The notes under the pieces are model-generated. The model saw nothing but the letters and a program-made list of their open reading frames with translations. It made no database searches and had not been told where the DNA came from. Made by a program: the position numbers and the translations under genes. A DNA stretch of 57,368 nt, counting the filler, from Circinaria calcarea (lineage: Eukaryota), in assembly GCA_051942165.1 (NCBI GenBank). It is 7 parts of 7 records of this genome, joined end to end, with 100 filler letters (N's around TTAATTAATTAA, not from the genome) between each part and the next. Parts side by side here need not be neighbours in the genome. Positions count along the whole stretch, not along the records: positions 8,217 to 16,331 come from JAVECS010001175.1; 6 more parts are not named here. One strand, given 5' to 3'. Position 1 is the stretch's first letter. Every line of letters begins with the position of its first letter. This document shows, piece after piece, positions 7,597 through 49,306 of this stretch.

Positions 7597-8116
7597 GGCA
7601 TGTACCGACTTGCCTCGTAATTTCATCTTGACGTATAGGTGGGAAGCATCATATACGCATAATATCCTTTCGATGATTTATGAAATCAATATAGAGCGCG
7701 TTTCCCCGGAGTCGAAAGTCCAAGGTATGTATTCATACAGATGAAGAGTGACTTGTTACTGTACGAATAGAATAAAAAGAATCCGGCTTTTTATGATGCG
7801 GAACAAATTCATGCTAACAAGCTGGGTACAGTCTAATTGGTCGTCTCTGGCTATCAGGTTAGAATGGAGAAATACCATCACATTCTAGCAGCATCTTTTT
7901 GTATCATATCATAGTACCTAAGGTGATTGGCAATCAGCACGTCATTAAATGTATCCAACACGAGTACCTCATACCAAGCAATTCAATAGTGCAATTATCA
8001 TTGGCCCTCCTCGAGTTATTGCCCCTATTACACCTTGTCTTTCACCTCCCCCCTCCCCCTCCCTAAACTGCTTAAAGAAGACCGGAATGGTGTCCTTCAC
8101 TCCCATGTCTTTCCTC

Positions 8117-8216
8117 NNNNNNNNNNNNNNNNNNNNNNNNNNNNNNNNNNNNNNNNNNNNTTAATTAATTAANNNNNNNNNNNNNNNNNNNNNNNNNNNN
8201 NNNNNNNNNNNNNNNN
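8117..8216. other. Artificial contig-joining linker (N44-TTAATTAATTAA-N44)
   Basis: 100-nt N run with a central six-frame stop sequence; identical at all six junctions. Confidence 0.98.
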
Positions 8217-9165
8217 AACCGTTAACTCGGGTGGTGTACCCTCCCAAGCGGGTTCACGTCCCAGGATCTTCAGCACCATTAGAACAGAGGACTTCCCTTT
8301 CGACTTGATAAGTAACGGCCCTTTGGTTCTAGGGTGCTCATTGTGCTGTCAACAACACCTTAGCCGGTGCCTCGTAGCCCAATGTGCCTTCTATTTAGAG
8401 TTAGGCGGCTCCCCTGGGGAGTAATGAGCTCTAACCGCCCTACTTTTCAACGTGTGTCTATTTGCAGTCACCGGGTGGTAGGAACACCCTTGCAATCTCG
8501 TGCAGTGTTACCACTGCTAAAGATACCTGGCGCCTCGAAACCTTCTCCGCGTGGCTTCCTCCCCCTATCCGAAGACGGGTTACAGAAATCTCGTGGCACA
8601 GAGACCACAAAATCGCGCCCTATTTATCCGCTTAACCTGGATAGGGGGTGTATCTGCGTACTGGCACCGGAGGTCTACGCTGTCCCAGGCGGGTTCGCGG
8701 ACTTTAGTATAAACCAGGGTGTACCACGGGGAGGTACCTCGCGAACACTCGACACCCCTAGAATATGATGGTGTGATCACTAACATGATTGGTGATACAA
8801 GTGGACAGTAGGCTAGAACACTTTCCATGCTTGAACATGCTGGGAGCTGCACCTGCAGCTGTACCAGCGTTTAATGCTGATTTAGTAGTATAACAGCCAT
8901 TGCTTTTTGGGGACTGATAAGGCTCCGATGAGTGTGACTGCGCCGAGTGGTTGTTTGACCTGGCAAGTCAATAGAATATGTGAAATCACAAAAAATGTAC
9001 AATATTTGGGGCCAGCGCTGCGACATGTGGCTTTCTGCACATCGCGCGAACGCGACGCTACTACTGCCTAAGGCACATATATACATGGCACCTATGCACA
9101 AATAGTTATTTTGACGCCCATATCAAGCATTCATGATGCTGCTCTGATGATACTTGGCAGGTAGG

Positions 9166-10638: not shown

Positions 10639-11610
10639 ATGGCCGACCGTCCGGATCCACCATCCAATGATCAGTTTAGAGTGGGATGGATTTGCGCGCT
10701 TCCGACGGAAATGGCCGCCGCCACCGCCATGTTGGATCAACAGTTTAATTCTCTGGTCCAAGATAAATCGGACCACAATAGTTACGCCTATGGCTGGATT
10801 CGTCACATTAATGTGGTTATCGCTTGTCTTCCTGCGGGTCTTGCCGACACGGTTACTGCAGCAACAGTCGCGAGTCAGATGCTTAGAAGCTTTCAGTCGA
10901 TCAAGATCGGATTGATGGTCGGAGTTGGTGGGGGCGTGCCTACTCCACATAAAGATATACGATTAGGCGATGTGGTTGTGAGCAAGCCGGCGGGCCAGTC
11001 CGGAGGAGTGGTACAGTATGATCGTGGGAAGAGAACCGCTGGAGGAGTCTTTGAAAAGACAGGGGTGCTGAATAAACCCCCTGATGTGTTACTGAATGCG
11101 TTGAATAAGCTGCGAGCGGATTTCGAACGCCACGCTCCCCAAGTTGAGGAACTTCTCACCGAAACGCTTCGGAAAACATCACCCGGGATGCTGAACACAT
11201 TCTGCAGACCTGACGCAGTGGACAAGCTTTATCGCCCCGACTACGACCATCCTCGCGACACTGGGGATTGTACTAGATGTGATCCGCAGAAACTGGTCCG
11301 TCGGTCTCAAAGGACGGAACTTAAAATCCATTCTGGTATTATTGCCTCTGGAAACTCGGTGATTAAGGATGCTGCCGAGAGAGACAAGATAAGCAAAGAC
11401 CTTGGTGGTATTCTTTGCTTCGAGACAGAAGCCGCCGGGCTAATGGACGGTTTTCCTTGCCTCGTGATTAGAGGCATCTGCGACTATGCTGATTCACATA
11501 AGAATAACCAGTGGCAAAGATTTGCAGCGGCAACAGCGGCTGCTTACGCTAGGATGCTAGTAACGATTATGCCCCCGAGCGAAGTGGAGAAAACGCAGCC
11601 TGCACAGTAA
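10639..11610 (+). CDS. Nucleoside phosphorylase (PNP_UDP_1) domain protein of the fungal NLR-effector type; intact 323-aa portion
   Basis: VGWICALPTEMAAA, HNSY..G.I..INVVIACLP, GLMVGVGGGVP, DIRLGDVVVS, GGVVQYDRGK, IHSGIIASGNSVIKDA.ERD, LCFETEAAGLM, CLVIRGICDYADSHKN.QWQ.FAAATAAAYA. Confidence 0.93.
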   Translation: MADRPDPPSNDQFRVGWICALPTEMAAATAMLDQQFNSLVQDKSDHNSYAYGWIRHINVVIACLPAGLADTVTAATVASQMLRSFQSIKIGLMVGVGGGVPTPHKDIRLGDVVVSKPAGQSGGVVQYDRGKRTAGGVFEKTGVLNKPPDVLLNALNKLRADFERHAPQVEELLTETLRKTSPGMLNTFCRPDAVDKLYRPDYDHPRDTGDCTRCDPQKLVRRSQRTELKIHSGIIASGNSVIKDAAERDKISKDLGGILCFETEAAGLMDGFPCLVIRGICDYADSHKNNQWQRFAAATAAAYARMLVTIMPPSEVEKTQPAQ

Positions 11611-11634
11611 ATAGTCTCACACAATAACCATCCT

Positions 11635-11895
11635 GTGTCGGGTACAAGTACGCCATTGGGTCAGCGATCGCTATCCCCTTCTGAACGGAGCCCGTATTTC
11701 TAGCAGGGGCTATCTCCTCCTTTGTCGGGTTCAAGTTCGCCATTGCTACAGCGATCGCTACCCCCTTCTAGACAGAACTCGACTTTCCAGCAGGGGCTAT
11801 GTCCTCCTTTGTCGGCTTCAAGTTCGCCATTGCTACAATCATCGCTACCCACTTCTGTATGGAACCCGACTTTCCAGCAGGGGCCATCTCCTTCT
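11635..11895 (+). repeat. 3 x 87-nt (29-aa) coding tandem repeat, LSGSSSPLLQRSLPPSRQNSTFQQGLCPP
   Basis: Unit starts at 11635, 11722, 11809. Confidence 0.9.
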
Positions 11896-12216
11896 GAGAA
11901 GTTCCGGCGTGAAGATTTTGGCCAAAAGTTTGGTGGCATGGAACGGAAGCCCCTACCTAGAGAGAGTGTAGGTTACAAACAGCCAGCCGGAATGTATCGC
12001 CCGCAAAGGCCGACAAAGAGCTACTCCGATCAATCTGGCCAACCTACCCAGTATCACTACAGCCCATCCATACCACTTCACCCGTTGCCAGGGCTAGAAA
12101 GCAAGCCAATAGGACGAACAACTCCCCGTGAGACACCCTTGGGGCTGGCCGCAGACTATTATTTCGGACCTCAGAATATGGACGGTGATAGCCAGCACGA
12201 GAACACCAAAATCAGG

Positions 12217-12360
12217 GGTAACCACGGCAATAATAAGGACCACAGCGACAAGAATAGCGGTAAACACGGCAATAACCAGCAACACAGCAACAAGAATAGC
12301 GGTAACCACGGCGATAACCAGTGTTACAGCGACCAAAAAAGCGGCAACCACAACGGGTTA
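12217..12360 (+). repeat. ~3.5 x 42-nt (14-aa) N/G/H-rich coding repeat, G(N/K)HG(N/D)NxxHSxKNS
   Basis: Unit starts at 12217, 12259, 12301, 12343. Confidence 0.9.
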
Positions 12361-12469
12361 AAATGGGGAAATTAGCATATTGACGGCCATGACCAGTACC
12401 ACAGTAACCAAATCAGCAGCCACCACAACGAGCCAAGCTCGGGACATCACACAGGGTATGAGGGAGAAG

Positions 12470-12885
12470 TAGACCACGACGATAATGTTGACACCCTTTT
12501 CATTTCTGGTACTAGGCCTTATAGCGGCCACCACGATGAGGGCGAGGATGAAAGTGTTGACAACTCTCCAATTCCTCCTTCTGGGCCTTATGGTAGCCAC
12601 CACGATGAAGGCGAGGATAAAAGTGTTGAAAACTCTCCAAGTCCTCGTTCTGGGCCTTATGACGGCCACCACGATGAAGGCGAGGATGAAAGTGTTGACA
12701 ACTCTCCAACTCCTCGTTCTGGGCCTTATGGTGGCCACCACGATGAGGGCGAGGATGAAAATGTTGACAACTCTCCAAGTCCTTATTCTGGGCCTTATGG
12801 CGGCTACCACGATAAGAGCGAGGATAAAGATCTTCACGAATCTCCAACTCCTCGTGCTGGGTCCTATGGCGGCCGTGACGATGAG
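12470..12885 (+). repeat. ~6 x 69-nt (23-aa) acidic His-containing coding repeat, GPYGGHHDEGEDESVDNSPxPRS
   Basis: GG(C/T)C(T/C)TAT anchors at 12515, 12584, 12653, 12722, 12791, 12860. Confidence 0.92.
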
Positions 12886-13582
12886 AGCGGCCATGACGAT
12901 GAGAGCGACGATGAGGATTGCTGTGGTGGTATATTCTCTTGTTGTTGTAGTATATTCTCCTGCCTTGGCGATGACAATGGAAGTACTAGAGGGGACCATG
13001 ATCACGATCGGCATGATTATTAGGACAGTCGGCGCGGACAGGCGGGTTTAACCAAAAGGAAGCTTCCAGCGGGCGTTATGTTGGAGTTTTTGGTATGGCA
13101 ACTTCACTAATAGTAATCCAATCTGGAGCAGGCCTAGAGTCCTTTTTAATGCATGTAATAGTGGATTCATGTAAATACTTTTTGGAGAATGAAAAGATGG
13201 TACGCAGCTCACACTGAATTTCCTTTTGCTTTGCAGAATTGCTTAGACTGGCACGCTACGAAACGCACGCCGCAAAGCACCCACCAGAGCACTGCGAGCA
13301 GGGAGGGAGCCTTTGCTTTCTTGGGCCTTGCAAGGTATCTGTATGGAGTCAGGGCACGAGATTGTGTAGCATGATTCGAGCGCTGATTCCGCGTTGCTTA
13401 GAACACGGAGCAGGATTGCAAAGCAATTGATAACAGTCGGCTCCCTCCCGTAAAGTGAGGGCTTTGTGTCCAAGGCAAGTAAGCCTTGCGGAAATATAAC
13501 ATCTTTAGGAGTGGTGTCAGTTCACGGGTTCCATTCCCTGAAGCTTATATTGGCGTAAGAAACTGAGATATGCTCGAACCTT

Positions 13583-15025
13583 CTAGCGTACTCCTCCGCC
13601 CACCGTATACAGATTGTTTCTAAACAAGCTCCCTAATATTGTGCGCATATAATTACCGGTCTTCCACGTAGTCCTCTTGCGGTGGTACAAATATGACAGA
13701 ACTGCTGCCGTGGAAGCGACTGGAATAGAAATCGCCCAGTAAACCCAGAACTTGTTAGAAAGATTCCACTTGCCACTATCGATATTTTGCCTGGTAACTA
13801 CCAGGTCGAAGAGCGTAGCAATATAGCTGAACGGGATGAAGACTGCCGTAGTAAGCCCAAGAGTTCTCATGACGGAGCTGTCGGACTGAATAATCCGATT
13901 AATACTCATGGATGCGCTGGCAATGTTCTGTGCTGCCATATTGAAAGAGAGTTGTATCTCGTTCTGCAAACGATCCTTATTGGAGATTGATCGCAAGCGT
14001 AAGCCTTGGATGGCCTCGCTGTAGAAAACAAGCTGATCGTTTATGTGGTGTTGAGTAATCTTGACTGTCGCGTCCGTTGTTGTTATTTCAGAGGCAAATT
14101 GATCATTATGCAATATCATGCTATCGAGAGTCCGAGCCGCAAGATCTAAGGTTTCGAGCACGTGAATTGCGTGCCTGGCGAGATCATGAATAACTGGGAA
14201 ATCTGAGCTCTGTAACGTACGTTCATGTTCTATAGATCGGACTAAGTTGCGAATTTTCCAGACGGCATTGTTCTGGAGACGGAGTACTTCCCCAGCAAGC
14301 AGTACATGGCTGAAATACGGATCGCCCAAGCTTATGGAATCGACGGCACCGGCAAAAAGAGTTGTCAGATGGTCTTTCATAGTTGGACTAGCATCGAACA
14401 CGATAACGATAGTTCCTTTGGTAGAAGCATTCCATCGAGTGAAGACGTTAAGCTTAACCCACTGGTAGTCTTTGCCGTTTCCAACGAACATCTCCTTGTA
14501 GGATGTGTGAAGTGTCTGTTTGACGAGAAAGCGGAACCAGGTGTCTGTTGCCAAGTTGGTTGAGATCATCCGCATCAATCGGGAGACATACTGTATCCCT
14601 TTTGTTCCCCATCGCCTCCACCCGTGACCTCGCAACCAAAGTATCCATTGGATCGACGACACCATGGAGACCACCACACCTTAGGTATTCCGAATACCTC
14701 CGTGAAATGGCGTTTGCAAGTTAGGCAATCTCTAACTTTGTCCGCTTGAGCAAAGCTGGCATCCGTCAGTACCAAATAGTGTTCTATAAATGTGGTTGAA
14801 CTCTTTACATCAAAGTCAGCGGAATCGAGTCAATTTGTTGCGTTCGTAGGTTCTCGATCGATATTTGATTGGATTTCGGGTAGCATCCGCCTGGAACTTG
14901 GTAAACCCAATTCATTAGTCTACTGATAGAACTACCTGTACGGTAAGACGGAGATCAAAGGTCGCACCTTGTTCCATCATCACTCTCTCCAATATTGGAC
15001 AATCTTGGCAACCAAAAGGGGCCAT
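13583..15025 (-). CDS. Fungal CorA-like membrane protein (two C-terminal TM helices), multi-exon; 5' end approximate
   Basis: WW...CRRSNGYFGC, TWFRFLVK, IHDLARHAIHVLETLD, RLQNEIQLSFN, DSSVMRTLGLTTAVFIPFSYIATLF and FWVYWAISIPV; GT-AG introns near 14585-14548, 14808-14756 and 14967-14891. Confidence 0.8.
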
Positions 15026-15556: not shown

Positions 15557-16050
15557 TGTAAAGGAAATCATAGGATGATCCACAGCAACCTAGGCAAGGT
15601 TTCGTGTGATTATAAGATCTGGCACCTCCGCCCGTAGTCGACTAAGCGGTGAGGTTTTGTTAGATTAGGGGTGGATCACTCGTTTAGGCCTAGTGTAGAT
15701 AGAGCTTTCCTATAGAGGATCCCATCTCGTCTGACGAATAGATCAGATATTGACTACCTCATGATCTATTAGTTATGAGCCCGGAAGTAATTCCCGTATA
15801 GTAAATTAACTGTCGTACGAAGCAATTCGCAAATACTGCCAGTTGAAGAGCATTGTATGAAACGATTAGCAAAAATGTCCACACCTGTGATCAAGACCCA
15901 AGTATTCCTCAATGAACTCAAGGGTTGGGATAAATGGCTTAGGCTACTTTAGTTTGTTGCACGAGCAGAAAATATTTGGGAATTCGAGAACCCCGCGACC
16001 CCAAAAGAGTAGCTATCTAAATTATTAAGATTTATTCGACCAATAATGTA
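15557..16050 (+). mobile_element. Decayed Ty1/copia LTR retrotransposon 5' end (putative LTR ~15557-15771, PBS, gag N-terminus)
   Basis: (A)GTTATGAGCCC PBS-like motif at 15771-15782; ATG 15875 gives MSTPVIKTQVFLNELKGWDKWLRLL*FVARAENIWEFENP (gag-like W..W...IW...P) with TAG stops; AT-rich. Confidence 0.6.
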
Positions 16051-16331
16051 AGGATCTTCTACGAATAGTATGAGGATCTTACGAAAAGGGGTCGGTAAAT
16101 TGTGTGATAATGTGCTTAATTGGTTCGTATAGCGTATAAATTATTGCTAAAGAATTCTGGTGTAATACTTCGCGAGGAAAACCTTTCTCGCTAAGCTAAT
16201 ACCTCGTGACCTCGGTATATAATTCACCCGTAGGGTTCGTAGGGTTCTCTGGTAGAGACCTCTATAGTCGGAAGGGGGAATAAGATTTACGATTACGTCG
16301 AATTCCTATTTTGCTGTTTTCCCCCCGGGGG

Positions 16332-16431
16332 NNNNNNNNNNNNNNNNNNNNNNNNNNNNNNNNNNNNNNNNNNNNTTAATTAATTAANNNNNNNNNNNNN
16401 NNNNNNNNNNNNNNNNNNNNNNNNNNNNNNN
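16332..16431. other. Artificial contig-joining linker
   Basis: N44-TTAATTAATTAA-N44. Confidence 0.98.
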
Positions 16432-16739
16432 GACAGTTATAATACTATACAATACCAGGCGTCAACGATCAACGGCGCTAACAGATCTCACAGAGTATGA
16501 TACCTTAATCACTTCCTTATTCATACTTACTAGTACGGTAGCCCGCCATGCAAAAGTTTTTGGTATGGCAAGGTTAAAATAGATAGCGGTGTCATTTTTT
16601 CAGTGGTGATGTGAGAATGGTAATGCCGAGTTGGTTGTAGGACGCTATTGTAGTAATTGTTAACGCCTGGTATCGTGGTATTATAGGGTAGGTTCTCTCC
16701 CTTTCCCTTCCCTTTCTCTTTTCCAAATTTACATATCGC

Positions 16740-16785
16740 TCTCCCGCATTCGCCTTCTCCCGCATTCGCCTCTCCCGCATTCGCC
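16740..16785. repeat. 3 x ~15-16-nt tandem repeat TCTCCCGCATTCGCC
   Basis: Directly visible. Confidence 0.85.
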
Positions 16786-17475
16786 ACTACCATCGAAACT
16801 ATAGACCGCAGCCTCTAAGCTTTCAACTTTCAACTTCCGGCTAGATAGATACCTATTACCTAAGCTAAGACCGTTTATTGGTTAGGTCTGATGGGTAATC
16901 TAGTCTCCCTTAGGGAGTTATAGAGTAGATTGTATTAGGTAGGATGGATTGGACTACGGGACTTCCGACGCGGGAGAAGGGAGTTTTTCGGCGGAAAAAA
17001 GGGGGTAAAGGGCGATGGGTCTTGACGAAGGAAGGGGTTAAGAGCCGTGCTTATTCGAGTGAGTTCCCTCCACAGTCCGCTCAACCCCACGCGGCTTGCA
17101 TGATTGGGGGGTTTATTTGGAGCAGGGCGGATGAGCAGTCCGCAGTCGGTTCGGGCCAAGGGATGGGGAGATTGGGAGATGAGTAGGAGAGTGGGGAGCA
17201 GGAGTGGGGAGTGGGAAGTGAAGAGTGGAAGGAGAAATAAATGTAGGTTCTACAGATTACAAAAAGTCGATCAAGGAGCATGCAAATGTTAAAGAACAAA
17301 GACAATGCGGGTTCATTTGCAACAGTTATGTTAGCTGCCGCCAATGACTATCGTCAAAGAATCCCCCCCCTGGCGGATATGAACAACTACGACGCGATGG
17401 TTTCCCATTTCTTCCAGTCTGGCGGATTTCCGGTTGCGAGGAGATAGAGAGTATCTCGACGTTGGAGGTAAATCT

Positions 17476-18336
17476 CTAAGCAGCCATTTTCCGTTCCAAG
17501 TCCATCATAATCTCCTTGACCTCCTGGACCCCGTTTGTCAATCTGTCGAGGCACTCGCGTAACTTGTCGCAATCCGCTGAAATCTCCGCTGGATCAGTCT
17601 TTTCTCTTCCGCCTGCCTTGGTCCCTTGAAAAGCATCCACCTTTGCATTTGATCCTTTTCCTTCCATCCTCGCCTTTAGCTTCGCCAAGGTCTCGACTCC
17701 AATACATGTTTTGGGTAAAGGTTTTATAATAACCTTCTTGACTCCCGAGACCTTTGCCATTTGCTGGATCAAAAGGGAATTCATGCCAAAGCCGAGTAAA
17801 TGATCTGACAGCCGGAAATACGCCAGTGAGAAGCGCATCTCAAGTTTTTGCAGATTGTGACCATGGGAAAATATAGCAAAGGCGTTGCCCAGGTAAGACC
17901 CTCTACCTTCATTCTCCGTGTTCAGGTTGTAGAGCTCGAGGCCGATCTCTCCGGGGTAGTAAAGAGAGAGCGGATCTTCAATGAATATGTGGATCTGCGT
18001 GATTTTGGTACGGTTTTTCCCAATTAATTGGAGCCAGATGTGGAGGTATGCGATTGCGATGGCTTGGACGCAACCACAATTTGTGCAGTAAGGCTCGTCT
18101 TCAAAGTAGAACACGTTGCTTCCGTACAACATGGCAGTTCCCTCGCGATGAATCTGCACGCAAGTTCTCAAGAATGGAATACTGTCGGCGAAGACCCGAA
18201 TTGGTCTTCCTTCACTTGCGCCGATAGTGTAAATGGCATCTAAGGGATCAATTTCTATCCGGCCCTTGGAGTGTAGGAGATAGCGATAGACTTCTGTGCG
18301 AAGTTCAGCCGGTAAATCAAGAAATGGGAAAGGCAT
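17476..18336 (-). CDS. Fungal F-box-like protein, paralog 1
   Basis: PFLDLPAELRTEVYRYLL N-terminus, FLRTCVQIHREGTAMLYGSNVFYF, WLQLIGKNR; C-terminal coiled coil. Confidence 0.85.
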   Translation of the reverse strand: MPFPFLDLPAELRTEVYRYLLHSKGRIEIDPLDAIYTIGASEGRPIRVFADSIPFLRTCVQIHREGTAMLYGSNVFYFEDEPYCTNCGCVQAIAIAYLHIWLQLIGKNRTKITQIHIFIEDPLSLYYPGEIGLELYNLNTENEGRGSYLGNAFAIFSHGHNLQKLEMRFSLAYFRLSDHLLGFGMNSLLIQQMAKVSGVKKVIIKPLPKTCIGVETLAKLKARMEGKGSNAKVDAFQGTKAGGREKTDPAEISADCDKLRECLDRLTNGVQEVKEIMMDLERKMAA

Positions 18337-19823
18337 CGTTAGATGAGAAGCTAGAGGGTGTCAGTCAGAATTGTGCCAGAGAATGAAATCAGCAAATAAA
18401 GCTCCGAGTGTGAAGTTACATACGTCTGCTGCTTCGGCTAGCTCTGTGGTTGGTCAAGTGATGTTCAATCTGATGTACCTTGCTTTAGAATCACGACTTA
18501 TCAATCATGAACTAATGTGAACATCGGCTGATGTTGTGGGAGAGGGACCATTGCAGATAAGCAACGCTGATCATCAAGCAGATTGGAGGTCTTGATATGT
18601 AACTTCTTCCAATACTATCCATAGATCACTCAACCATGCTTGATGTGATAATGTAGGAATGAACTGCTAGCGGACGATCACAACCTGGATGAGTTGACAT
18701 CATGCGAGTGATTGTCTCCGTCATATCTTACTAAGTTCTTTGCTCCCTAAAGTTATGCATGACCCTTACACAGCACTAGCTACCGAGGTCTATCTGGTGC
18801 AAGCTCGAGGGATTTGGTGAGAGGTAAACCCGAGGACAACTAAGGAGATTTATATCCATGTGAAGAACTGGTAAGCCACGTGAGAATTCCGAACTACCTC
18901 CTTCTGATAGTAAGCTCGCTCAGGAAAAGGTCTAGGCCTTGGCTAGGTAGATATAGAACTTCGTGATCCATAGATAAGGGAGTACTTGTGCAGAAACCAC
19001 GAAGATCAAGGAGAATATATTCTTCTCATTGCACGAATTCTTCCGTATGTATTATATGTGCATGCGATAGTAGAGTGATGAAATCAAGACAAATAGCTGT
19101 AATAGGACCGACTGGTCGACCATGCACTCACCTGTATGGTAGCCTAGCGCTACCGTGCACCAACATCTCCATTTCTTACTTACCACCAGCGTACACACAC
19201 GATGTAGGCATAAGAAGATGGTCTGAGGGAAAATCTTTCGGGATGAGGATATGATCATGCACGGGGCGGGACAGATATTGCAGGAAATGGGTTGATTAGG
19301 GCGAGAAGACAACTGGAGAATGGATGAAGAATTGTGGGAAGGAACTATTCGCCGATATCAACACGGTTCGTAAAGTACTTTGGTAGCTCAAAGATTGTAC
19401 CAAACTAACCGTTGTAAACATGGAGGTTATCTACTAGATGAGAGTAATGTCATCTATCATATTAGCAGATTGTGTTGATGGTATCAAGGGACAATTAGTA
19501 TTGATATATTGTTAGTTTAACCCGCGGATGTTTGAGATGAATAGGCGTAGGCCAATTATTTGATTGATTTAACTGTTAAAGGACGGTTGAGGGATGAGAT
19601 GTCTAATGTCTTCCACGCGTCAGCATTATCCACCTACAACTTGCCATCCTTGTAGCTTCCTCACTTCCGTATTCCCATCCTTCTCGAGAAGGTGATCTCA
19701 AAGGTGCCCTACGTGAAAGATTGGTATACTTGAAAACGTCTGGGAGCTACTATTGCTGATGGATCTTGCTCCGGCCCTCTAGCTTCAATCTCCCAGGCAA
19801 CGGCCCCAGACTACTCCCACAGC

Positions 19824-20729
19824 TTAAATCATTCTACTCCCCATGTCCGCAATAATCGCGTTCAGTTCCATGATCCGTCTATTCTGCCTGGCGACGTTGT
19901 CTTGCAACTTTTCCCTTCATTCGGCATGAACGACAATCCTTTTTACAACCTCCTCGGTACTGACTAGATCAACAGTTGTAGATCTCGAGATGCTAGCCTG
20001 AGGATTCGGTTTCGCAGATCCTCCCTTTTCCATGCTTGATTTCAGCCTCGCCAGCCTATCGAAGCCCACCGCTGTTACTAGTAGCGGGGTAATCTTGAGG
20101 GCCTAGAGTCCTTTGATCTTAGACATCTTCTAGAGCAGGGTTGAGTTCATACCACTGCTATAAAAAAGCTCTTGTACATGGCCGTCTGCTCTAGAAAGGT
20201 CCAATTCCAGCTTCTGGAGATTGTGATCCAGCGACAATAGTTCGAACGCCTTCCCCAAATGTGGCCCATCGTACGAGAGAAGGCCTGCCCAAATCTCCTT
20301 TAAATATCCTCTCTCCGCTGGAAAAAATAGGAAGCAGGGGTTACGTATGCTGATATAGAGTTTTTTTAGTTTCATGCGGTTGTTTCCAATGCTGTAAAGC
20401 CACGAATAGAGATAGGTGGCCTGGCTCTTTCCGAGACAGTCACATTGGACCATCCACCTCGTGCGATCACGAGAACAATCTTCAAAGTAAAATGTGTTGC
20501 TGCCATAAAGGATGACTGTACCCTCTGAATGCGTTTGCGAACACACTCTCAAGAGTGGTATGCTGTCCGCAAAAATGAGGGATCTGTCTTCATTGAAGGT
20601 TGATTCTGGACAAAATGTACAACTAGCATGAACTGCAACGCATTCATTAAAAAACAAGCACCGATAGACTTTGGTCCGTAGCTCCAGAGGTAGGTCCAGG
20701 AACCGGAGAGGCATAGCTGATATAAACAT
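19824..20729 (-). pseudogene. F-box-like paralog 2 with premature stops
   Basis: RFLDLPLELRTKVYRCLF...LLRVCSQTHSEGTVILYGSNTFYF; the frame continues MNSTLL*KMSKIKGL*ALKITP...E*REKLQ...MI*, aligning to paralog 1; stops at 20130-32, 20103-05, 19917-19. Confidence 0.8.
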
Positions 20730-22528
20730 TAATCGCTGTTAGCAAAGACCGAACGAACCATCAGTGATCGCAGAGTCCTGGAAGAACTTACGGTAGATAT
20801 GGAAGCAAAAAACCCTAGAGATCAACAGCTTCGTCGGGGAGGCTATGATGGACTGGAAGTCCGGTTTCCAATTGACTGAGGATCAAGGATATCCAACAGC
20901 TTTGCTTCTTCCCCAACAACTTTGCCACCGCTGTATGTTTCCTCCTCCGATATCACTGTTGGGTCACTACGGGCGTGGACGATAAAATCCTCTGTAACGG
21001 AGTACCTATCCAACATGGAGCACAGTATGAGGATCAGGCAACTTAAACAGCTTTGATCTTGTAGGCGACCTTCTCACCGATTGTCACCTATATGCTAAGT
21101 GAAGTCAAAAGCATGGCTGCCTTGAAGTCTCGTTGTTATCGATGATCCCAGTAGCCGGTACTGGGTGTTCGCGTTTGATACGTAACTGTGATCGAGAGCA
21201 AGTCTCCAACTTCCTATTCGGGCACTCTTAATGCATTGAAAGGTCGTACTCACTCTTTATCTGCCTTGATAGAGTAGAAGTTGTCGACTTATTGTTCATA
21301 GCGGTCTACATAGGTGAAGCTCTCGCAACCGGCCCCGTCTTTTATGCGTTTATCTGCAATATATTGAAGATAGTCCATAAAATCTCTACGTATGTTATGC
21401 ACCACCATCAAGTATGATACCACCACCAACCTAGCTAGCGGAGACTGAGAAGCCAGACAACCTCTCGTGGCAGCCATACTACAAGCTAGGAAGAAATCGA
21501 TCAAAGGATGTCTCCTGCCTTTTATAAGCCCATGAGGGACAGCATAATTCATGGGGTGCGAGCAGATAGCCGGTCTAATATATGAGGTACGTTTTCTTCC
21601 GGAGGAGTGAATAATCGGAGAATTTGGGATGGGAAATTCAGGACATCGAAGGTATACTCCGTTTAACAGGATTTGAGTTGGTGCCTTTTTTTCTTTGTGC
21701 TGAGAATATATTGGAAAGCTGAATATTCGGAGTGGATTAAATTACACTTCATGAACGAACCTATAAAATGCCATGTACCATGGTGTAAAAGCGCCTACAT
21801 ATGTTAGAGAAGAGGGAAAAGTTATAAAAACATGTCTGTGAATTTTTTGTGTTGACAATGCATTGCATATCTGGTCTTGCTTTCCATGACAGGAGCGTAT
21901 CCGGCTGAACTTGTTTGGTAACTCATGGTGTTTCAGGCTTGCACGGTCAACCGTGGTGTAGCACACATATCATTTGTTTACTCTGGAATAGGTTCTGGAC
22001 TACAGCGTCTAAAGTCCGTCAATGATGTCGTTTCCCCACAACTGCTATTCTTTTTATTCCGGAGAATTTGACAGTCTTTCACAGTGGAAGTCCACTTCAC
22101 TGGAGTTCGTGTACCAATCCATACCACCACAGCAGGATTTTCTTTGAGACTCTAGTCTGCCAGAGGCTTGCTAGACGTCTTGAGGCGTACAAGATCTTCA
22201 GTTCTGGGACGTTGAGATCCTGCCTGGCTCCCTTGATGTGCGTTTGATTGTTATCGCTCGCTCTTGGACTTACAGGAAGCAGTCTTTCTTGCTTCATCTC
22301 TCGTCAACAAAAGATACGCGATTTAGGCTACCACATGTCTCCTACGACTCGCCCCTCTTCCTCATGAGGAACAACTGATTGGAAAACAATGCAAGCATAG
22401 AAGAGCCTGAAGCAGAGGGAACTAAGGAGCACTGGTGAAGTTTGCAGACAGTATGTTCAACACGCGTGTTGCCCTCAAAGCGCTGATCGGATTAACAGGC
22501 ATCAAAGGTCTACACCAATCTCCTAAAA

Positions 22529-23425
22529 ATGAGCGGCACACTGTACGTTCTACCGCCAGAAGTGCGAAAGATGATATACACTTTGCTTTTTGTTGACAAC
22601 GGAAACATTAGTCCCCGTGTTCCATCCTTTGAAGACCTTTACCGCCACAGAGAAGGTTGGAACTTACTCTACACCTGCAAAGCCATCAACGCGGAGGCTA
22701 CTCCAATAGTGTACGGGGAGAACGTGTTCTGCTTCGATGATAACGATGATGAGGACCTTTGGGAGGAAGCGGATATGCAAACCTCCAAAGACTCCGTTGA
22801 TGCGCAATTGCAACAAATCGACGAGTCTATATACATGGGCTTGCCAGTCTGGATCTACAGAACGCTTCCGACTTGTCCCATACGGGAAATGCACGCCTGG
22901 CTCCAGAACATAGGTAAACAGAATCGACAGAGCATCCGGCAGATCAGGATTCAGTTGCAGTATCGCAATTTCTGCTATTATACTGACGAACCACAAATCT
23001 GGCTGGACGAGCATGACTATTACGAAGAGGACCTATGCCATAGTCCCGCCGGAGGTATCTTCATCGGGAAAGCAATGGAGCTTCTCTCACGTGGCCATGG
23101 TCTGAGAAGGCTCGAGATTGCGTTCTCTTGTAAGAAAGAGGGCCAGACCGATCTTTGGCAACATTTCTTCCGCGAACCGTCCATGTCACAACTGATCCAA
23201 GAATTGGCGAAACTGAAGGGGGTGGCGAGCTTTTACTGCGACACCGAACAGATTGAGAAGGACATCGCGGCAGGAAATTGGCATGTCAGAGATTTGAAAG
23301 AAGCCTTGGGGGTGTACAAGAACTTGCAAGAAGCTATGAAGTCGGCGGAACTATCCAAGAACGATGACCCACTCCCTTCGGTTGCGATGAAAACAGCGGC
23401 AAACGAGAGTGTGCTTATAAACTAG
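22529..23425 (+). CDS. Fungal F-box-like protein, paralog 3
   Basis: LYVLPPEVRKMIYTLLF, LLYTCKAINAEATPIVYGENVFCF, WLQNIGKQNR, GKAMELLSRGHGLRRLEI. Confidence 0.85.
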   Translation: MSGTLYVLPPEVRKMIYTLLFVDNGNISPRVPSFEDLYRHREGWNLLYTCKAINAEATPIVYGENVFCFDDNDDEDLWEEADMQTSKDSVDAQLQQIDESIYMGLPVWIYRTLPTCPIREMHAWLQNIGKQNRQSIRQIRIQLQYRNFCYYTDEPQIWLDEHDYYEEDLCHSPAGGIFIGKAMELLSRGHGLRRLEIAFSCKKEGQTDLWQHFFREPSMSQLIQELAKLKGVASFYCDTEQIEKDIAAGNWHVRDLKEALGVYKNLQEAMKSAELSKNDDPLPSVAMKTAANESVLIN

Positions 23426-24545: not shown

Positions 24546-24645
24546 NNNNNNNNNNNNNNNNNNNNNNNNNNNNNNNNNNNNNNNNNNNNTTAATTAATTA
24601 ANNNNNNNNNNNNNNNNNNNNNNNNNNNNNNNNNNNNNNNNNNNN
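24546..24645. other. Artificial contig-joining linker
   Basis: N44-TTAATTAATTAA-N44. Confidence 0.98.
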
Positions 24646-26525
24646 CCCGTTATATACAGCTTGGCTGAACGCTTCATCATCCAAGGTCGTACTCTTCATA
24701 TCGAAATCGCAGTTGATGCACCTCCGAACCGCATCACCGTACCGTTTGCCATTCTCGTCGTATACCACATCAATCAGGCGATTAGCCGTGTGCCACGTCG
24801 TGTGTATATTCGGGCTGCCATCAGAACCCAGGGGATCCTCTGAATCTCTCAGTGATTCGATTGAACGTCCCAAGGAGAGTTCGATGAGGACCACTCCCAG
24901 TGCAAAAAGTGTCTTGTTGCGAGGGCCGAGGAACTTCTCCTGTGGACCTGTTTGCTCCGGTGCTGAGGGAAAGCTTCTGGATACGTAGGCTTGGTTGTGA
25001 AGGCGTCGAGTCGTTCCGTCGTTGATCATGATGTCGTCTTTGGTCCAGTCGTCACGGAGCCATGGGGTTTTGTATAATTGGAGGACGCTGGATGCTATGG
25101 TAAGTCCGAGGCGTAGGCGGTCGCCTCTACTGAAATCGAATTTTGCGGTTGGGATCGCTGGATTCATTAATTGGGACAATGACCTGACAGTGCGTCGATC
25201 AGGAAAGGGAGTGGGCATCTCAGGAAGGTAAACTGCGAGTCGTTGTTTTGCTTGTGTGCATAGATAGCCTAGGCACCGACTGTTGGCTTTACCGTCCGTC
25301 CAATGCTTCATTGCCCAGCAAAGGTTGTCAATTGGGACTAGACCGAGGTCAATTATCTTGGGAAAAGCTGCTGTAAGTCCATTGGAAGGCGTTTGCGGTG
25401 GTGATGGTAGTAGATCAAATCTGACTGATTTTTTTTGTCGGTTAGCCTTGCTGGAAGCTCGAAAGTTCAGTCTGGAGGTTTTCTCTTCTTCTAGCTGGGA
25501 AGGTGCCGAGTGTGGTAGTGAGGTATGGACTGCAATATCTCCCCCTTGGCACGCTATCTGACTATTTCGCATCGGAGTGGAAGGCGGCGTGGTCACAATT
25601 CCTTGCAATGGCTGCGGTAGGGTGGGAGATTGATAATCAAGTAGCCGTATTTCCGTCTCTCGCCATAACCACGGTAAAGCTTGTATCCCGTTGGCATCAA
25701 CTGAAAATACCACCTTGAACTGTAGATGTGAACTCGAAATATGCTTCGTCGCCAAAGGAGCAGTATGATTGCTACATATTCGAGAATCAAGGCATAGATC
25801 AGCGAAATGGGGGAACGCGCATTTACAGGTCCAACTTTGACTGATGACATTGTATAAATTCCGGGCATGTTCTTGGATAGCCTTAAACGAAATAGATGGT
25901 CGTTGACGGCGCTGCCTGGCTGGCTCTAGGGTTAGGTTCTGGCTCGTGAGGTCTGCAAGCATGTCGTTGCCCCTTGTGATCTTCCCGACTAGGTTGTCAT
26001 GGCTTTTCCGTGACAAGCTAAACTTGATCCTTTTGTACTCATGCCTGAACGATTTGTAGTCAGTCCACAATGGCTGTATTTCGGTTCAGTACTCGTAGTC
26101 AGACAGACGAAAAGGACAGATTACGGGGCACTGACCCTCCCTTCCGCGTTGAGTTCTAGTTTTACTTTCATTTCCTCCAGAGCCTCTTTTATATCCGTGA
26201 CTGAATGCAGGTATGGCGCATATGACCTGTGTAGGCGTGCCCTGAGCTTTTCATCAAGCTCATCATCCTTCCACAGCCCACCGCCGGCGTCCTGTATGAG
26301 TCTTTCTAGATCCGGCCCGGCTACCAGGCCGTCGAGCAATAACTCGCACGTATTGAGGAACCGGGCATGTTCTGCTTCTAATGATCGTACGAGACATTGT
26401 ATCTCCTTTTTGAAATGCCACCATTTAACTATAGTACTGATCCCTTCGGCGTAGTGTTCGAGTGCCGATATAACAATTGGGAGGGATCCAAGGACAAGAC
26501 CGGCTGTTTCAATGCCAGTCACCAT
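24646..26525 (-). CDS. HeLo-like N-terminal domain plus C-terminal degenerate kinase-like domain protein; intron 26135-26074; 3' end truncated by contig end
   Basis: MVTGIETAGLVLGSLPIVISALEHY N-terminal helix; RLRLGLTIASSVLQLYKTPWL..W, LFALGVVLIELSLG, YGDAVRRCINCDF (recalled as DUF7580-like, unverified). Confidence 0.8.
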
Positions 26526-28800: not shown

Positions 28801-30360
28801 ACTTATAAAACTCCCTCCATACCGGGTTCGCTGCTTAGATTTGATAAGGCATAATATCTTTTTGCCCTATCATCAAATCCCTTTATATCTGGCGAAGAAC
28901 CTCATCGCAAAACCGTAGCAATATCCTTGGCGAGAAGCTCTTCACGAAAAGCGATGAAGAGTTTCACTAATGACGGTAGATAATATAGAGTTAAGATTAC
29001 CAGTGGTGCTAATTTTAAAGTTCTTTAAGTAGTAATTAAATAAAATGCTTGGTTAAAGAAGCATAATTTTTATGAAGCTAATCGGATCTGATATAGAAAA
29101 CATAAAAAAATCATAGCTTAGGAAACCAAAATGAGTGAGAAATAAAGATCGTCCGATGCTTATGCCACTGACTTTCAACTCTTTGTTTGAACCCCTTTCT
29201 TTTTCGCCTCTCCGCAACCTTATTTTATTGATCAAAACATGTTATAAGACGCTGTTGAATAGCGTTAAAAACTTAACGGAGAAACCGCCGAGAGGGACCC
29301 TATAACTAGGAAATCTGTCGAAGAAGTCTGTATAAAGATTACGGAGGGAATAATAATAATATAAGGCGAAGGCTGAAGAAGAGATAAAAACCGGGGTCCG
29401 GGAATAAACCATGGCTGCTGCCGAAGCAACTATGAAGATAAAAACTTAAAAGGAACGCAGCAGCAGCCTTTCGCGGTCTATTGGTGCAAAAACCAGTTCG
29501 GTTTAAATTACTATGGGGAGGGAATGCATATGCTAGAGGGTTGGAAGGATAGGGCAGATATTTTTACTTATTTAAAAATATCCCGCAGCATCGGTAATAG
29601 GTTTATTAATAAAGCAGGGTGTAAGGGCGCCGCAATCCTTAAAGCCTATTGAGGAATATAATAAATCCCGATTGGTGATAGCACGATTATATAGGGTGTA
29701 GCTGAATTATTGCCCTAGGCTTAATATAAAAGGAGTATATTAAACTCGTTATAATTCTATAAACATGCTATTTTAAAGAGCGGGAATAATTTATTTATAT
29801 AATACTCTGAGCACGCTGAGCATCTTAAGTATTTCCCTACTCACTTCGCTTATTCTACTCATTCGAGCACTCTAAGTATTTAGAGTATTATCCTGCTCTT
29901 TCTATTTACTCTACTCACTTCGTCAAGCGAGTTATACTAGTCTGCTTTGGACTTAATCTCTCAATATGGCGCCAGCGCCATAACACAGAGAGTAGTCGGT
30001 ATATATATTAAATTATAAGTCAGAAGGCACGTAAAGCAATATTACCCGCTCTCGGAACGAACGAGTAGTAATTTATACCGGCCGCCGTATGCTGCTCTTG
30101 AAAGTACAAATCCTAAAAGGCCCCAGCGCAACCCTATACAGCTTTAAACCGCCCTCTTATTTTAACTTTGTATTTCTGCTCTCGTCTTAACTCTGTAAGT
30201 GTAGTATTATGAAATGTTCTTTTCCCAGGCTGTACGGAGTACTATGGCCCTAATTCCGAATTAAAACACTTAACCGAGATAGCGGGATAGTATATATATT
30301 AAGCTAAAATTCGTAATACCGTTGCCGTTTTATGTAAGGTGGGTCTAATAGGCATTAAGC
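28720..30360. other. AT/TpA-rich decayed region (RIP-like), possibly a transposon relic
   Basis: Abrupt rise in AT and TA dinucleotides, no ORFs; repeated CTACTCACTTCG motifs at 29836-29922 ending in ACTAGTCTG. Confidence 0.6.
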
Positions 30361-30528
30361 GTATTGTAGCAAACCAGCATCCTGGGAATCCACATTTCGT
30401 GAGAGCTTAGGCGCCTTAGGCACTTCGTAGGTCTCAGCCTCATTTTCCCCCAATTTTTACATCTAGTCGACGCTTCGCCCTATGGCTCCGTATGAGAAAG
30501 GTCGTCCGTCTGCTACTTCCTTCAAAGT

Positions 30529-32606
30529 ATGGCATCCCTAACCTTCGGTAGCGTCGGAGACATTATTACTATTAGCGGACTTATTGCCAAAGCTATCTCC
30601 GCTCTATCAGAATCGCGAGGCTCGTCCGCCCAGTTTCAGGGTCTCATTCACGAACTCTGGAGCCTAGGGCAAGCTCTCGAGAGTGTGAAATCGTTGATAG
30701 AACGGGGAACGAGCCTCCGGCATCGCGGAAGATTGGGGATCGCTTTGGATCAATGCCGCAGATGCTTGGATCTCTACTTGGGGCGGGTGCAAAAATACTC
30801 GGCTTCCTTGAATATTGGAGGCTCCGGGAACGCTGTTAAGGATGCATTCTGGAAGTTGAGATGGGAGTCACACAAGGTCCCCATCCACCTCTCAAGCGCG
30901 AAGTAACTCGAGCTAAGACTAGTTTCAGGATGATCTGGCAGCGTTTCGGGCAGAAGTCGCATCACATGTGGCGTCGATCGGAACAATCTTGGAAGCTGCC
31001 GGAATCCAGCTGACTCAAGACATTCACCAAGAAACGAAGGCCCAGCTCAATGAGTTCGGGAAGAGGCTCCAAGGTGGACTGGAACAATGTCAGGCGTCAA
31101 GCAAGCGGCAGCAATTGGAGGTACTGGGCGCCTTATCTCAGCAGGACTCTCTCGGTCAGCAAGATCACAAGGCAACGAGAGCACAGATAGAACAGTTGCG
31201 AGTTGCTACGCTCGGGAAACTTGACGAAAACTCGAATTTACTGTTCCAGTTGGATGCCAATGTACAAAATAATGGCTCACGTTTAGCACAGATCCTGGAT
31301 TTCATCCAGAAAGTGAACAGGTACGCTTATATACATCTGTTGGGATTATGGCCTAATGGCGCTCCGATAGTTCCGACTTCGTTGACTTCCACGTCCTTAT
31401 TTACAAGATAGAGCAAGTACTACTTCAGCACAGCATCCCACGACATTTGGAGAAGGCACCGTTGATCTACGAAGACGCACTACTCCGCAAGTTTTCAGTG
31501 GACGTAGAATTTATCCCCTCTTGTAATAGCCACTGCTTATCAAGCTTCCGGATTCCTGGGCTAACACCAGTAAAGTGGAAATTTTCACATATGTCATTGG
31601 CACGCACTTTTCCGGTACTCGCGGCCAGCGGAAGATAGAAAAGATGGAGTATATCTTTGAAGATTCAAAACATCATCAACTTGATTTAAAGTCCATGTGG
31701 ACGAATAACCTACTCTCCGGGAAAATGATGTTCATGCGGGTTACGTTTGACCGCGATGAAACTCCTCAAACCACCTGCCCTGCTTGCCACTCCACGAATG
31801 CCAATGTTAACGTAACTGAGATTGAATGGTGAGTTTGCCGCTGTACGACAGAAAATGGCTGATAGCTCAAAGTCGTAACTGTGGGATACGTTACCAAAGG
31901 ATTGTGGAAATACTCGAGCAGCCTGGAGATCCCAAATCCAGGCAGTCCGTGGACGGCTTCCCGCCGCTGCACAACGAAGACGAGCCAGATTCCTTGACTA
32001 GACTGAGCTCCAAATTGGAAAACGATAGTCTAGCAGATGAGATATGCTTCTTCAAACGAATCAGAATCATAGCGAACGAAGGCGTGAATCCTGAGGAATT
32101 GGCCGTCCAGGCCCTCATCACTCACGGCTTAGCTTCGAATAAACTCGAGGCCATCGCAATGCTCCAAGTAAGCTGCCTTTACTCATCCCGCTAATAACAC
32201 GAGCTGATTCCTTCAGGCTAAAGCAGCACACTCGAGCGAGTCAGTTTCTAGTGGCGATGGTGGAATGTTAGCTGAACGTACGCGGCTAACACAAATGTCG
32301 CCAAATCTCCGCCAGAATGTTATACCAATTTCACAAGGTTCTCCTACGGAAATTCTTCCTGCTATTGTGGTGGAGCCAAGACGACTAATGACTAGGCGCA
32401 CATATGGAAGGGGTATGCAGGCATGGAGGACTCCTACATCTTACACATACACACCTGTTGAACTTTACGAGGTCGGTAGATACCTGATAAAGTGTAGTAG
32501 AATTGGGCGCTATAACACGTCTCCTATTATGAAGGATATAGGGTGCTCCGCTATGCTCCTAAGGTATAGGCAAAGACGCTGTCGAGAAGGGGTAATGGGA
32601 GCCTGA
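30529..32606 (+). CDS. Fungal STAND-type (Helo_like_N/sesA-like) N-terminal domain + coiled coil + ubiquitin-like domain + CxxC...CxxC zinc ribbon; ~6 exons, 3' end approximate
   Basis: MASLTFGSVGDIITISGLIAKAISALSESRGSSAQFQGL..EL.SL..AL; YEDALLRKFSVDVEFIPS.EIF...HF....GQRKI....Y.F.D; TTCPACH...EIECRNCGIRYQRI; GT-AG introns keep the frame. Confidence 0.78.
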
Positions 32607-37517: not shown

Positions 37518-38586
37518 ATGGTTGGAAATGTAGTAACTGGCAAGGAGGGCCCTAAGAGCAAAGGACCTGAGGGAGGACAAGCTGTTCCAACTACTTTGGG
37601 CAGGTAAAGATTCTACGTGACTTCCTCTTTTCGATCTACCTAACCATACATCTAGGCGCTTTGACTCAGAAGTCTTCACGATCATCGTTGGAGATACAAA
37701 ATCACGCTTCATGGCTCATGTTAGCGTCTTGTCTCAATCTCCAGTCCTTGCATGTATGTGCAGTGGACCTTTCCAGGAGAGCTTAAACCAGCTTATTAGT
37801 CTACCCGACGATGACGCCGCAAACTTTGGACTACTACTGGAATTCCTCTACCAAGACAATCTTCCAGATTTGATAGTCTCAGGGTCCAATGCGTATATCG
37901 AAACGCTCGCAGATATCTACATACTAGCGGATAAATACCAGCTACAAACCCTCAAGGAGGCCGTCATCTCGCAACTGCGCTCCTGGGATGGTCTCTATGA
38001 TACCCCAATGGACTTTTTCACAATGGCACACAGGATCTACCATGATATCTCCCATTCGGTGTCTGACAAGAGTCTGCATGATTACTTCCTCGAACAAGCG
38101 AGACTTAAACTGCCTCTCCTGACTTCCTATGGAGTCGGCTACTTGGAAGAGCTTCTAGATCGTGGAGGAAGATTTGCTACGGATGTATTTAAAGTACAAC
38201 ATGATTTGATGATAGATGTCAAGACTTTCAGAGACCAACTGGAGAAGAAACTCACACAAAGTTGCCACGACGGGGAAATAGCGGCAGAACGCTACAGATT
38301 GCTGAGCGAACGTCTAGCGAATGCAGAGGAACAACATGCTCTAAGTTTGAAGAACATGCAAGGCCAGTTGACAAAGACTCAAAAAGACTTGGGAGCTACG
38401 AGAGACAAATCTAATAAACTGTGTACTAAGTACGTGATAGCTAAAATAGACCATACGAACAACCATGATTCATGTGCTTCATGCCGTTACCCTGAAGGTG
38501 GGTCTTTTCACTTTTCTGTCCTTTACCGGTTCAGAGATTTATCAGCTGACACATATACAAGGCACATAGTGACTAATTATGGTTAG
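37518..38586 (+). CDS. BTB/POZ domain protein with coiled coil and C-terminal HxxxHxxCxxC; intron 37604-37655
   Basis: FTIIVG....FMAHVSVLSQSPVLACMCSGPFQES...ISLPDDD...FGLLLEFLY; LADIYILADKYQLQTLK. Confidence 0.9.
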
Positions 38587-39258: not shown

Positions 39259-40289
39259 ATGGATACTACCAAGTACTCCAGAATGGAAGAAGTAGCTATA
39301 CCTTCGGTTGAGACGCCGTCGTGCGTCAAGTTTCTAGTCGATTCTGACCAGATGGGCTCGTAAGTCTCCCGATTATCGTCAAGCTACCCACGGGTGTACC
39401 TTTAACGCTTGGCAACAGGCGGTTCGCCTCAAAGGTGTTTACCATTACGGTTGGAGACTCCAACTCGACATTCTCGGCTCATGCCAACATCTTATCCAAA
39501 TCACCGGTGCTGGCTCGAATGTGTCAAGCTCCCTTTCAGGAGAGCCTTACCGGTCACATCGACCTCCCTGATGAAAGTGCCGAGGACTTTGGATTCCTGC
39601 TGGAGTACCTGTACATTGAAAATCTGGCGGTCCCCCTTTTCGACACCGAGGAAGATGAGGTTGCGTTTGCGAATAAACTCGCCGACATTTATATCATCGC
39701 CGATAAGTATCAAGTCATCTCCCTCAAGTTTCGCATCGTCAAGGAGTTCATCTCCATCACTCCTTTCTCCGATAACCCGTCGGCTTTTTTCCAGATGGCC
39801 CATCGAATGTACCACGACACGTCCGGTTCGAAATCCGATGGACCGTTCCGCGATTACTTCGAGTACCGTGCCGCGCTTTTGATGCGTTACATGAATGATG
39901 ACGTCCTCGAAGTTCTGGACGGCCTCCTCGAGGACGGAGGCAAGTTTGCGGTGGATATCGCCAAAGCCATGCGCCGTGAGCTCGACTACGAAGTGTGCGA
40001 GAGACTCAAGGACCAGCATACGCTTGCGGAAACTGAATCAACGCTGATCGCCGTGACCTCCACCATGGAGGCGGTTAAAGAGGACCTAGTAGCCGCCGAT
40101 GAACGAGAAAAGGTGGCGGCAAGAACCGGCAAAGACGTGAAAGTGCAGTTGCGATACGAGCACGATAAATACAACAAATCGAAAATCCAGCATGGGCACC
40201 ACCATCCCTCTTGCACCTTTTGCACATTCTCGGATTCGGTGAGTCTGTATGATACAACGAAATCTGCAATGGAGAGGCGACGGTACTGA
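39259..40289 (+). CDS. BTB/POZ domain protein with coiled coil and C-terminal HxxxHxxCxxC; intron 39360-39418
   Basis: FTITVG....FSAHANILSKSPVLARMCQAPFQES...IDLPDES...FGFLLEYLY; LADIYIIADKYQVISLK. Confidence 0.9.
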
Positions 40290-49169: not shown

Positions 49170-49269
49170 NNNNNNNNNNNNNNNNNNNNNNNNNNNNNNN
49201 NNNNNNNNNNNNNTTAATTAATTAANNNNNNNNNNNNNNNNNNNNNNNNNNNNNNNNNNNNNNNNNNNN
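49170..49269. other. Artificial contig-joining linker
   Basis: N44-TTAATTAATTAA-N44. Confidence 0.98.
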
Positions 49270-49306
49270 CTATGGGGAATGCCGCTCACATTCCTCTCCT
49301 AGTGCC

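Follow-up and report, generated by a model that had tools for sequence, protein, structure and literature searches.

Domains of the PNP_UDP type are among the commonest effector domains of fungal NOD-like receptors (NLRs), and the known ways of controlling them are fusion to an NLR or an NLR-templated amyloid motif. The published fungal contexts of PNP_UDP are NLR fusion and stand-alone effectors that carry amyloid signalling motifs such as PUASM (PMC9815663). An earlier proposal gave the PNP domain of fungal NLRs a methylthioadenosine/S-adenosylhomocysteine (MTA/SAH) nucleosidase activity (PMC4986451). For one fungal NLR domain of this type, Rousset et al. later showed ATP nucleosidase activity, with adenine set free from ATP, and toxicity to E. 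coli; in that study they put fungal NLR PNP domains in the Cap17/DtcC clade (bioRxiv 10.1101/2023.01.24.525353). Here, we describe a PNP_UDP gene at positions 10639-13023 (+) of a 57,368-nucleotide stretch of DNA from Circinaria calcarea (assembly GCA_051942165.1). This stretch, called the window, joins seven parts of seven records that need not be neighbours in the genome, and the gene lies in the part taken from JAVECS010001175.1. With high probability, the locus represents a conserved single-exon gene in broken form, either as an allele disrupted by nonsense mutations or as a very young pseudogene.

One frame, three stop codons

The window frame was analysed with Tandem Repeats Finder, with Pfam models and by a protein search using the read-through product with X at the stops; the listed matches are the best 120 of 641 significant ones. 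Read through in frame 1, 10639-13023 (+) gives 794 residues and a final TAG at 13021-13023, and the only interruptions are TAA 11608-11610, TAG 11701-11703 and TAG 12373-12375. An earlier sequence-only reading had placed three pieces in one frame broken only at these codons, and translation confirms it. The frame has no frameshift, its downstream part is fully open except for the stops, and the repeat periods found in it are all multiples of 3. Its parts are the following.

10639..11607, +, intact 323-codon open reading frame (ORF) with a PNP_UDP_1 (MTAN-like) nucleosidase domain, Pfam PF01048
11608..11610, +, stop 1, TAA, directly behind the domain, context agTaa (CpA>TpA)
11631..11892, +, array of 87 nt x 3.0, 29-aa S/P-rich units (Tandem Repeats Finder, 84% matches)
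11701..11703, +, stop 2, TAG, within unit 1 of the 87-nt array
11971..12093, +, linker motif GYKQPAGMYRPQ ... SIPLHPLPG, residues 445-485
12217..12351, +, array of 42 nt x 3.2, 14-aa N/G/H-rich units (Tandem Repeats Finder)
12373..12375, +, stop 3, TAG, context atTag
12515..12889, +, array of 69 nt x 5.4, 23-aa GPYGGHHDEGED units (Tandem Repeats Finder, 85% matches)
12869..12918, +, 18-nt acidic units adjoining the end of the 69-nt array (Tandem Repeats Finder)
12919..12963, +, cysteine string CCGGIFSCCCSIFSC, 6 Cys in 15 residues
12918..12963, +, 21-nt unit x 2.2, encoding CCGGIFS/CCCSIFS (Tandem Repeats Finder)
12964..13023, +, last 19 codons and final TAG, ending HDRHDY, without a CaaX box

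The first piece matches PF01048 above its gathering score (residues 15-302, 36.7 bits, cut-off 25.1, E 3.8e-9), as expected for the PNP_UDP domain assigned to it, and a Pfam search of the other three pieces (11611-13020) gave no match, including none to NACHT, NB-ARC, ANK, WD40 or TPR, in agreement with the proposal of a stand-alone PNP_UDP protein without NACHT. Three in-frame repeat arrays had also been proposed and are present, with copy numbers slightly lower than claimed (3.2 and 5.4 by Tandem Repeats Finder, against 3.5 and 6). No CaaX box was found in either of the two other frames of the terminal stretch 12964-13023, and no paralogue of the gene was found inside the window.

The best match among those listed, P0002 (654 aa), is uninterrupted; its alignment to the query keeps the frame, covers 85% of the query and shows 82% identity, so the frame is no chance effect. 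This intact relative spans the pieces, and their origin as one ancestral gene is supported by the alignment. Stop 1 (X324) corresponds to Gln in P0002, P0122 and P0123 and to Lys in P0003. Stop 2 (X355) lies in a repeat unit that is absent from P0002; P0122, a 229-aa fragment that is 90% identical in the domain, has Gln there and reads straight through the places of stops 1 and 2, and CAG occupies the same position in units 2 and 3 of the 87-nt array. Stop 3 (X579) is Gln in P0002, P0003 and P0123. Since relatives or sister units have Gln or CAG at these places, all three stops are, on this comparison, C>T changes of Gln codons, each in CpA context. As to the intact alleles that the earlier reading had suggested looking for, P0002 is intact and fragments of relatives carry Gln at the stops, and the downstream repeats and Cys tail are kept in frame in relatives. 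Searched alone against 1.84 billion representatives, the middle piece (223 aa) gave three matches, of which P0122 and P0123 are close-relative fragments and P0124 (34%) is an unrelated repeat protein. The last 118 residues searched alone gave 13 candidates, none scoring. Of 21 loci from a metagenome scan for close-relative DNA, the best reached 54% identity.

The locus is colinear with contigs from three related organisms that are 90-95% alike. The joints of these contigs are only gains or losses of whole repeat units, without GT..AG ends: each is one unit short in the 87-nt array (joints skip 87 nt), and in the 42-nt array the copy number differs (joints jump forward by 42 nt or back by 84 nt). 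Within the frame, each of the seven indels is a multiple of 3 (87, 87, 87, 42, 84, 18 and 3), while the three outside it are of 16, 1 and 1 nt, and reading on past 13023 enters a stretch with 1-nt indels in the relatives. Related contig X6 covers only a 36-nt acidic stretch. The source of one related contig, 2526 nt long, is a poly(A) metatranscriptome library; this by itself is not proof of transcription.

The nucleosidase domain, its linker and its tail

Among the matches listed, the N-terminal PNP domains of fungal NB-ARC/TPR, NACHT/ANK and NACHT/WD40 proteins show about 47-55% identity to the domain, and many fungal proteins of 320-350 aa that contain PNP_UDP only are 51-59% identical to it; for NLR domains and stand-alone proteins taken together, the figure is about 50-59%. 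An AlphaFold2 model of P0002, made from a 20-sequence alignment, has a confident domain at residues 1-330, and from 331 onwards the predicted local distance difference test (pLDDT) score is <50 with no secondary structure; the fold result rests on this model, P0002 being about 93% identical to the window in the domain. In Foldseek, the model matches futalosine hydrolase and MTA/SAH nucleosidases (MTANs) with E values of 7e-12 to 1e-9 and template modelling (TM) scores of 0.63-0.71 by target, at a sequence identity of 13-17%. The match to MTANs by sequence is weak and the acidic motif residues align, with E24 (ALPTEMAA), E262/E264 (FETEAAG) and D281/D285 (GICDYAD) falling on MTAN motifs and the N-terminal part of the alignment being weak. 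The family alignment (P0002 numbering) shows no variation at E264 and D285 and hardly any at E262 and D282. We take the catalytic acidic residues of E. coli MTAN, in its own numbering, to be Glu12, Glu174 and Asp197; Glu12 and Asp197 are named in the titles of PDB entries 1z5n and 1z5o. The NCBIfam model PRK05584 scores 68.8 bits, far under its equivalog cut-off of 169, and from its sequence the domain is not a housekeeping MTAN orthologue. Matches to the PADLOC 'Effector, PN-superfamily' model (E 2.8e-17) and to PDC-M60C (1.1e-16) were also found. By analogy, the substrate of the intact protein would be ATP/dATP or MTA-type nucleosides, the family would have an immune or cell-death role, and, through its fungal NLR relatives, it would belong to a Cap17-like clade.

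Behind the domain (after residue 320), 19 of 121 sequences, namely the window and the 120 listed matches, carry a linker motif made up of GYxQ..M.YPQ and, some 20 residues further along, [IV]PL..LP. The carriers are the window, P0002, the fragment P0043, P0010, P0017, P0029 and 13 matches in which CC-rich clusters lead up to a C-terminal C-[ITV]-[VIL]-M, that is, a CaaX box. None of the NLR-type matches listed has the motif, and every one of the 20 aligned sequences keeps its G and Y. For the 13 CaaX members, the precomputed Pfam families are PF01048 alone, except that P0007 also has PF11304. Six of them are named (Piccolia, Kuettlingeria, Caloplaca, Gyalolechia, Bacidia and Candelina), and the four that were looked up are placed in Lecanoromycetes, Candelariomycetes or leotiomyceta incertae sedis; all six are lichen-forming fungi. 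The combination of PNP_UDP, linker motif and Cys tail is thus, by alignment, a family and not a one-off of the window.

In the alignment, the Cys string of the window falls on the CC-rich clusters that the relatives have in front of their CaaX box. C-C-aaX preceded by CC clusters is the pattern of farnesylation together with nearby palmitoylation, as in Ras/Rho and cysteine-string proteins, and we infer lipid modification of the family tail. Because most family members add such a Ras-like CC-aaX box, the intact protein was most likely a lipid-anchored, membrane-tethered nucleosidase without an NLR part. The palmitoylation-type anchor that had been proposed for the Cys tail is strengthened by the 13 relatives ending in poly-Cys and CaaX. 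In such a protein, a farnesylated CaaX Cys and palmitoylated Cys residues close to it, where a long flexible linker ends, would tether the ancestral enzyme to a membrane, and the short conserved linker motif would be a candidate docking or regulatory site. Docking of the motif on the domain is not seen in the AlphaFold2 model, where its pLDDT is about 35-40; this is no evidence against docking. The suggestion that the S/P-rich array is an assembly module is not supported: its copy number varies (P0002 has two units and P0003 lacks the array), it is predicted to be disordered, and the published PUASM pattern is absent. A metallothionein-like metal site in the Cys and His clusters is possible. 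The tail of P0019 gave no feature match in the ESM Atlas, and the structure rows had TM scores <=0.15, which are meaningless for a disordered tail.

In P0010, P0017 and P0029, domain and linker motif are kept and the Cys string and CaaX box are replaced by a conserved hydrophobic or amphipathic C-terminus (...GIISFFKGHVTDIIDMLDVF), possibly another way of membrane binding.

A conserved family with a disordered linker and a probable farnesyl/palmitoyl anchor suggests a third mode of controlling PNP_UDP, by membrane location. Its natural members, some intact and some truncated by nature, lend themselves to testing this.

State of the copy and rival explanations

The window departs from 7 of 108 columns that are >=90% conserved in 118 other sequences, P0002 from 7 and P0003 from 6; most of these departures are common to all three, and K305R is the only one specific to the window. 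Since the domain is without extra damage and the frame without frameshift, this is not an old pseudogene, and by the column count its nucleosidase domain is not degraded. C>T at CpA sites of the frame yields a stop at 38 of 167 sites (23%); a process biased towards CpA>TpA explains three stops with no other damage better than slow neutral decay does. The base-by-base comparison of the window with its relatives uses 40 of the 381 differences, and these 40 all lie before position 11034. Between 10230 and 11033, X1 and X2 share a base that differs from that of the window at 14 sites. At six of them the window has T and these relatives C, and TpA context holds for five of the six, the background being 22%. 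The 69-nt array has 24 departures from its unit consensus, of which 16 are G>A (12) or C>T (4), against 2 A>G and 0 T>C; 9 of the 16 GC>AT changes are in CpA/TpG context. In both sets of sites, the polarity is unrooted.

Repeat-induced point mutation (RIP) was judged by TpA/ApT >0.89 and (CpA+TpG)/(ApC+GpT) <1.03. Heavy RIP of the gene was rejected on indices of 0.76 and 1.18, and the 768-nt middle part alone nears the thresholds (1.10 and 1.08). Elsewhere in the window, the block 16001-17000 is RIP-like (1.28 and 0.67, GC 0.38), and other AT-rich blocks with RIP-like indices lie at 8001-9000, 29001-31000 and 48001-49000; these blocks suggest that RIP-type mutation acts in the genome. A light RIP-like CpA>TpA origin of the stops is plausible, with about an even chance of being right.

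Several observations weigh against a recently broken gene for an anchored enzyme. The domain shows no more damage than those of relatives (7 of 108 columns against 7 and 6) and no frameshift has accumulated. Random single changes in the frame give stops in only 3.7% of cases, so three of them call for either prolonged neutral drift or mutation with a bias, and yet the RIP indices of the gene are ordinary and sites with T in the window and C in X1 (23) are not in excess over the reverse (36). Every related contig is <99% alike, so that the three T's could be assembly errors or the polymorphism of one strain. As for the anchor, the window copy has no CaaX box and P0003 and P0123 have no Cys tail at all; the anchor may already be dispensable in the clade of the window.

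The main uncertainty is that the stops rest on the assembled sequence of one isolate. If they were assembly or base-calling errors, or belonged to one haplotype or strain, the organism would have an intact gene of about 794 codons and make the full protein. The undamaged PNP domain, the lack of any frameshift, the downstream frame that is fully open apart from the stops and the dependence of the stop T's on one assembly would agree with that, but three independent substitutions of the same kind are needed, substitution errors that each make a stop are unlikely in a finished contig, and a protein collection contains exactly the 323-aa product of the window sequence (P0125), though this record may be the window's own; we regard an intact gene as improbable. 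That the long product is still made, with the stops bypassed by splicing, programmed read-through or a variant genetic code, is scarcely credible. An intron-like stretch of 97 nt at 11607-11703, whose GT is made by the first mutation (caGTAAAT at 11607) and which ends in TTTCTAG, would take out stops 1 and 2, but it was rejected as an intron: its removal shifts into a frame that ends at 11971, the stretch is coding and conserved in relatives, related contigs have no joint there, and stop 3 would stay. A variant code with TAR as Gln was likewise rejected, in part on the 1-nt indels that relatives have beyond 13023. TAA and TAG terminate other long frames in the window, and because of this and of a canonical chitin synthase intron (GTAAGT...CAG), its code is standard. 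As the stops sit where relatives have Gln, the code is standard and no intron removes them in frame, the locus reads as a broken allele, and the cryptic 794-codon effector of the sequence-only reading is not upheld for this copy.

It is possible, though clearly less probable than a broken gene, that the 323-aa ORF is a selected working gene for a neo-truncated soluble nucleosidase and that the 1.4 kb downstream are a decaying remnant. Stop 1 stands directly behind the folded domain, the domain keeps all residues typical of its clade, and natural PNP_UDP-only fungal proteins of similar size are many; on the other side, relatives at 90-95% DNA likeness retain the long frame, and a truncated gene is compatible with the nonsense-broken allele and not opposed to it. 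More speculative, and in our view unlikely, is that the family is an undescribed class of NLR-independent, membrane-tethered, nucleotide-depleting effectors, mainly of lichen-forming ascomycetes, with the window as a natural null, RIP-like and perhaps polymorphic, of a costly immune or allorecognition gene. Under the preferred explanation, that of a very young pseudogene or an allele broken by nonsense mutations, Gln codons would have become stops through three C>T changes at CpA, translation would end at codon 323, and the window copy would yield at most a 323-aa, domain-only protein. This would be a soluble enzyme without linker or anchor, as large as many PNP proteins that occur naturally on their own in fungi, or nothing would be made if the transcript were degraded. 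For annotation, the 323-codon gene call would hide a recently broken gene of about 790 codons.

Surroundings and known systems

About 1.1-1.5 kb upstream of the ATG of the gene, there are two inverted repeats, one of 44 nt with 95% complementarity (9383-9426/9468-9511) and one of 28 nt with 89% (9165-9192/9267-9294). Convergent with the gene is a 365-aa ORF at 13583-14680 (-) with no Pfam match, and one RNA-library contig of a relative runs from the tail of the gene into this ORF. A 495-aa ORF at 24598-26085 (-), 11.5 kb downstream in the window, has a DUF7580 domain (PF24476, E 1.5e-22). Since DUF7580 occurs together with PNP_UDP in two listed matches (P0093 and P0121), the two domains may be functionally linked. 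Weak DUF7730/2EXR matches near the Pfam cut-off were found in three neighbouring ORFs, at 17476-18360 (-), 20130-20738 (-) and 22496-23425 (+), which look like a local paralogue cluster. Two neighbouring ORFs with BTB/POZ domains lie at 37621-38586 (+) and 39348-40289 (+), and a class-IV-type chitin synthase (Chitin_synth_2 and CHS4) at 49226-53178 (+), with the intron GTAAGT...ACAG at about 52093-52145.

Set against described systems, the locus itself would be an ordinary recently broken gene, and the conserved architecture of its family is apparently an undescribed variant of a known effector domain; no published account of PNP_UDP with linker and Cys/CaaX tail was found in a search limited to one full-text collection. 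Fungal NLRs (Dyrka et al. 2014, PMC4986451), for example Hyaloscypha variabilis NLRN with its demonstrated ATP nucleosidase activity (bioRxiv 10.1101/2023.01.24.525353), share the domain subtype, with boundaries of about 1-310. Unlike them, the window gene has no NOD domain and no NLR-type repeats but a disordered linker and a Cys string, and in its relatives a CaaX box follows the tail. No NACHT or NB-ARC was found by Pfam among the 16 large ORFs of the window. With the PUASM and HRAM-like PNP_UDP effectors, as presented in PMC9815663, the gene shares a PNP_UDP domain without an NLR part and a C-terminal extension thought to control the place or timing of the enzyme. The PUASM pattern FxGxGxQxxGxGxF, strict or loose, is absent from the gene, whose tail is 470 residues ending in a Cys string and not an amyloid motif of about 25 residues, and that article mentions neither prenyl nor palmitoyl nor CAAX.

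Bacterial MtnN/Pfs and futalosine hydrolase match the domain in fold and in acidic motifs (..E..,.E.E.., ..D..D), but there is an insertion of about 90 residues (150-230), in addition to the low identity given above. Cap17 of CBASS and DtcC of Detocs are bacterial immune ATP nucleosidases, the Cap17-like clade being marked by cleavage of ATP/dATP to adenine and ribose-5'-triphosphate. The comparison with them rests on the PADLOC PN-superfamily effector and PDC-M60C matches of the domain; a sensor or signalling partner is absent. Finally, the tails resemble the CC-aaX anchors of Ras and Rho, since the relatives end in C-C-[ITV]-[VIL]-M after CC clusters and the window keeps 6 Cys in 15 residues; Ras-type tails, though, are often basic, whereas the Cys clusters of this family stand in very acidic surroundings.

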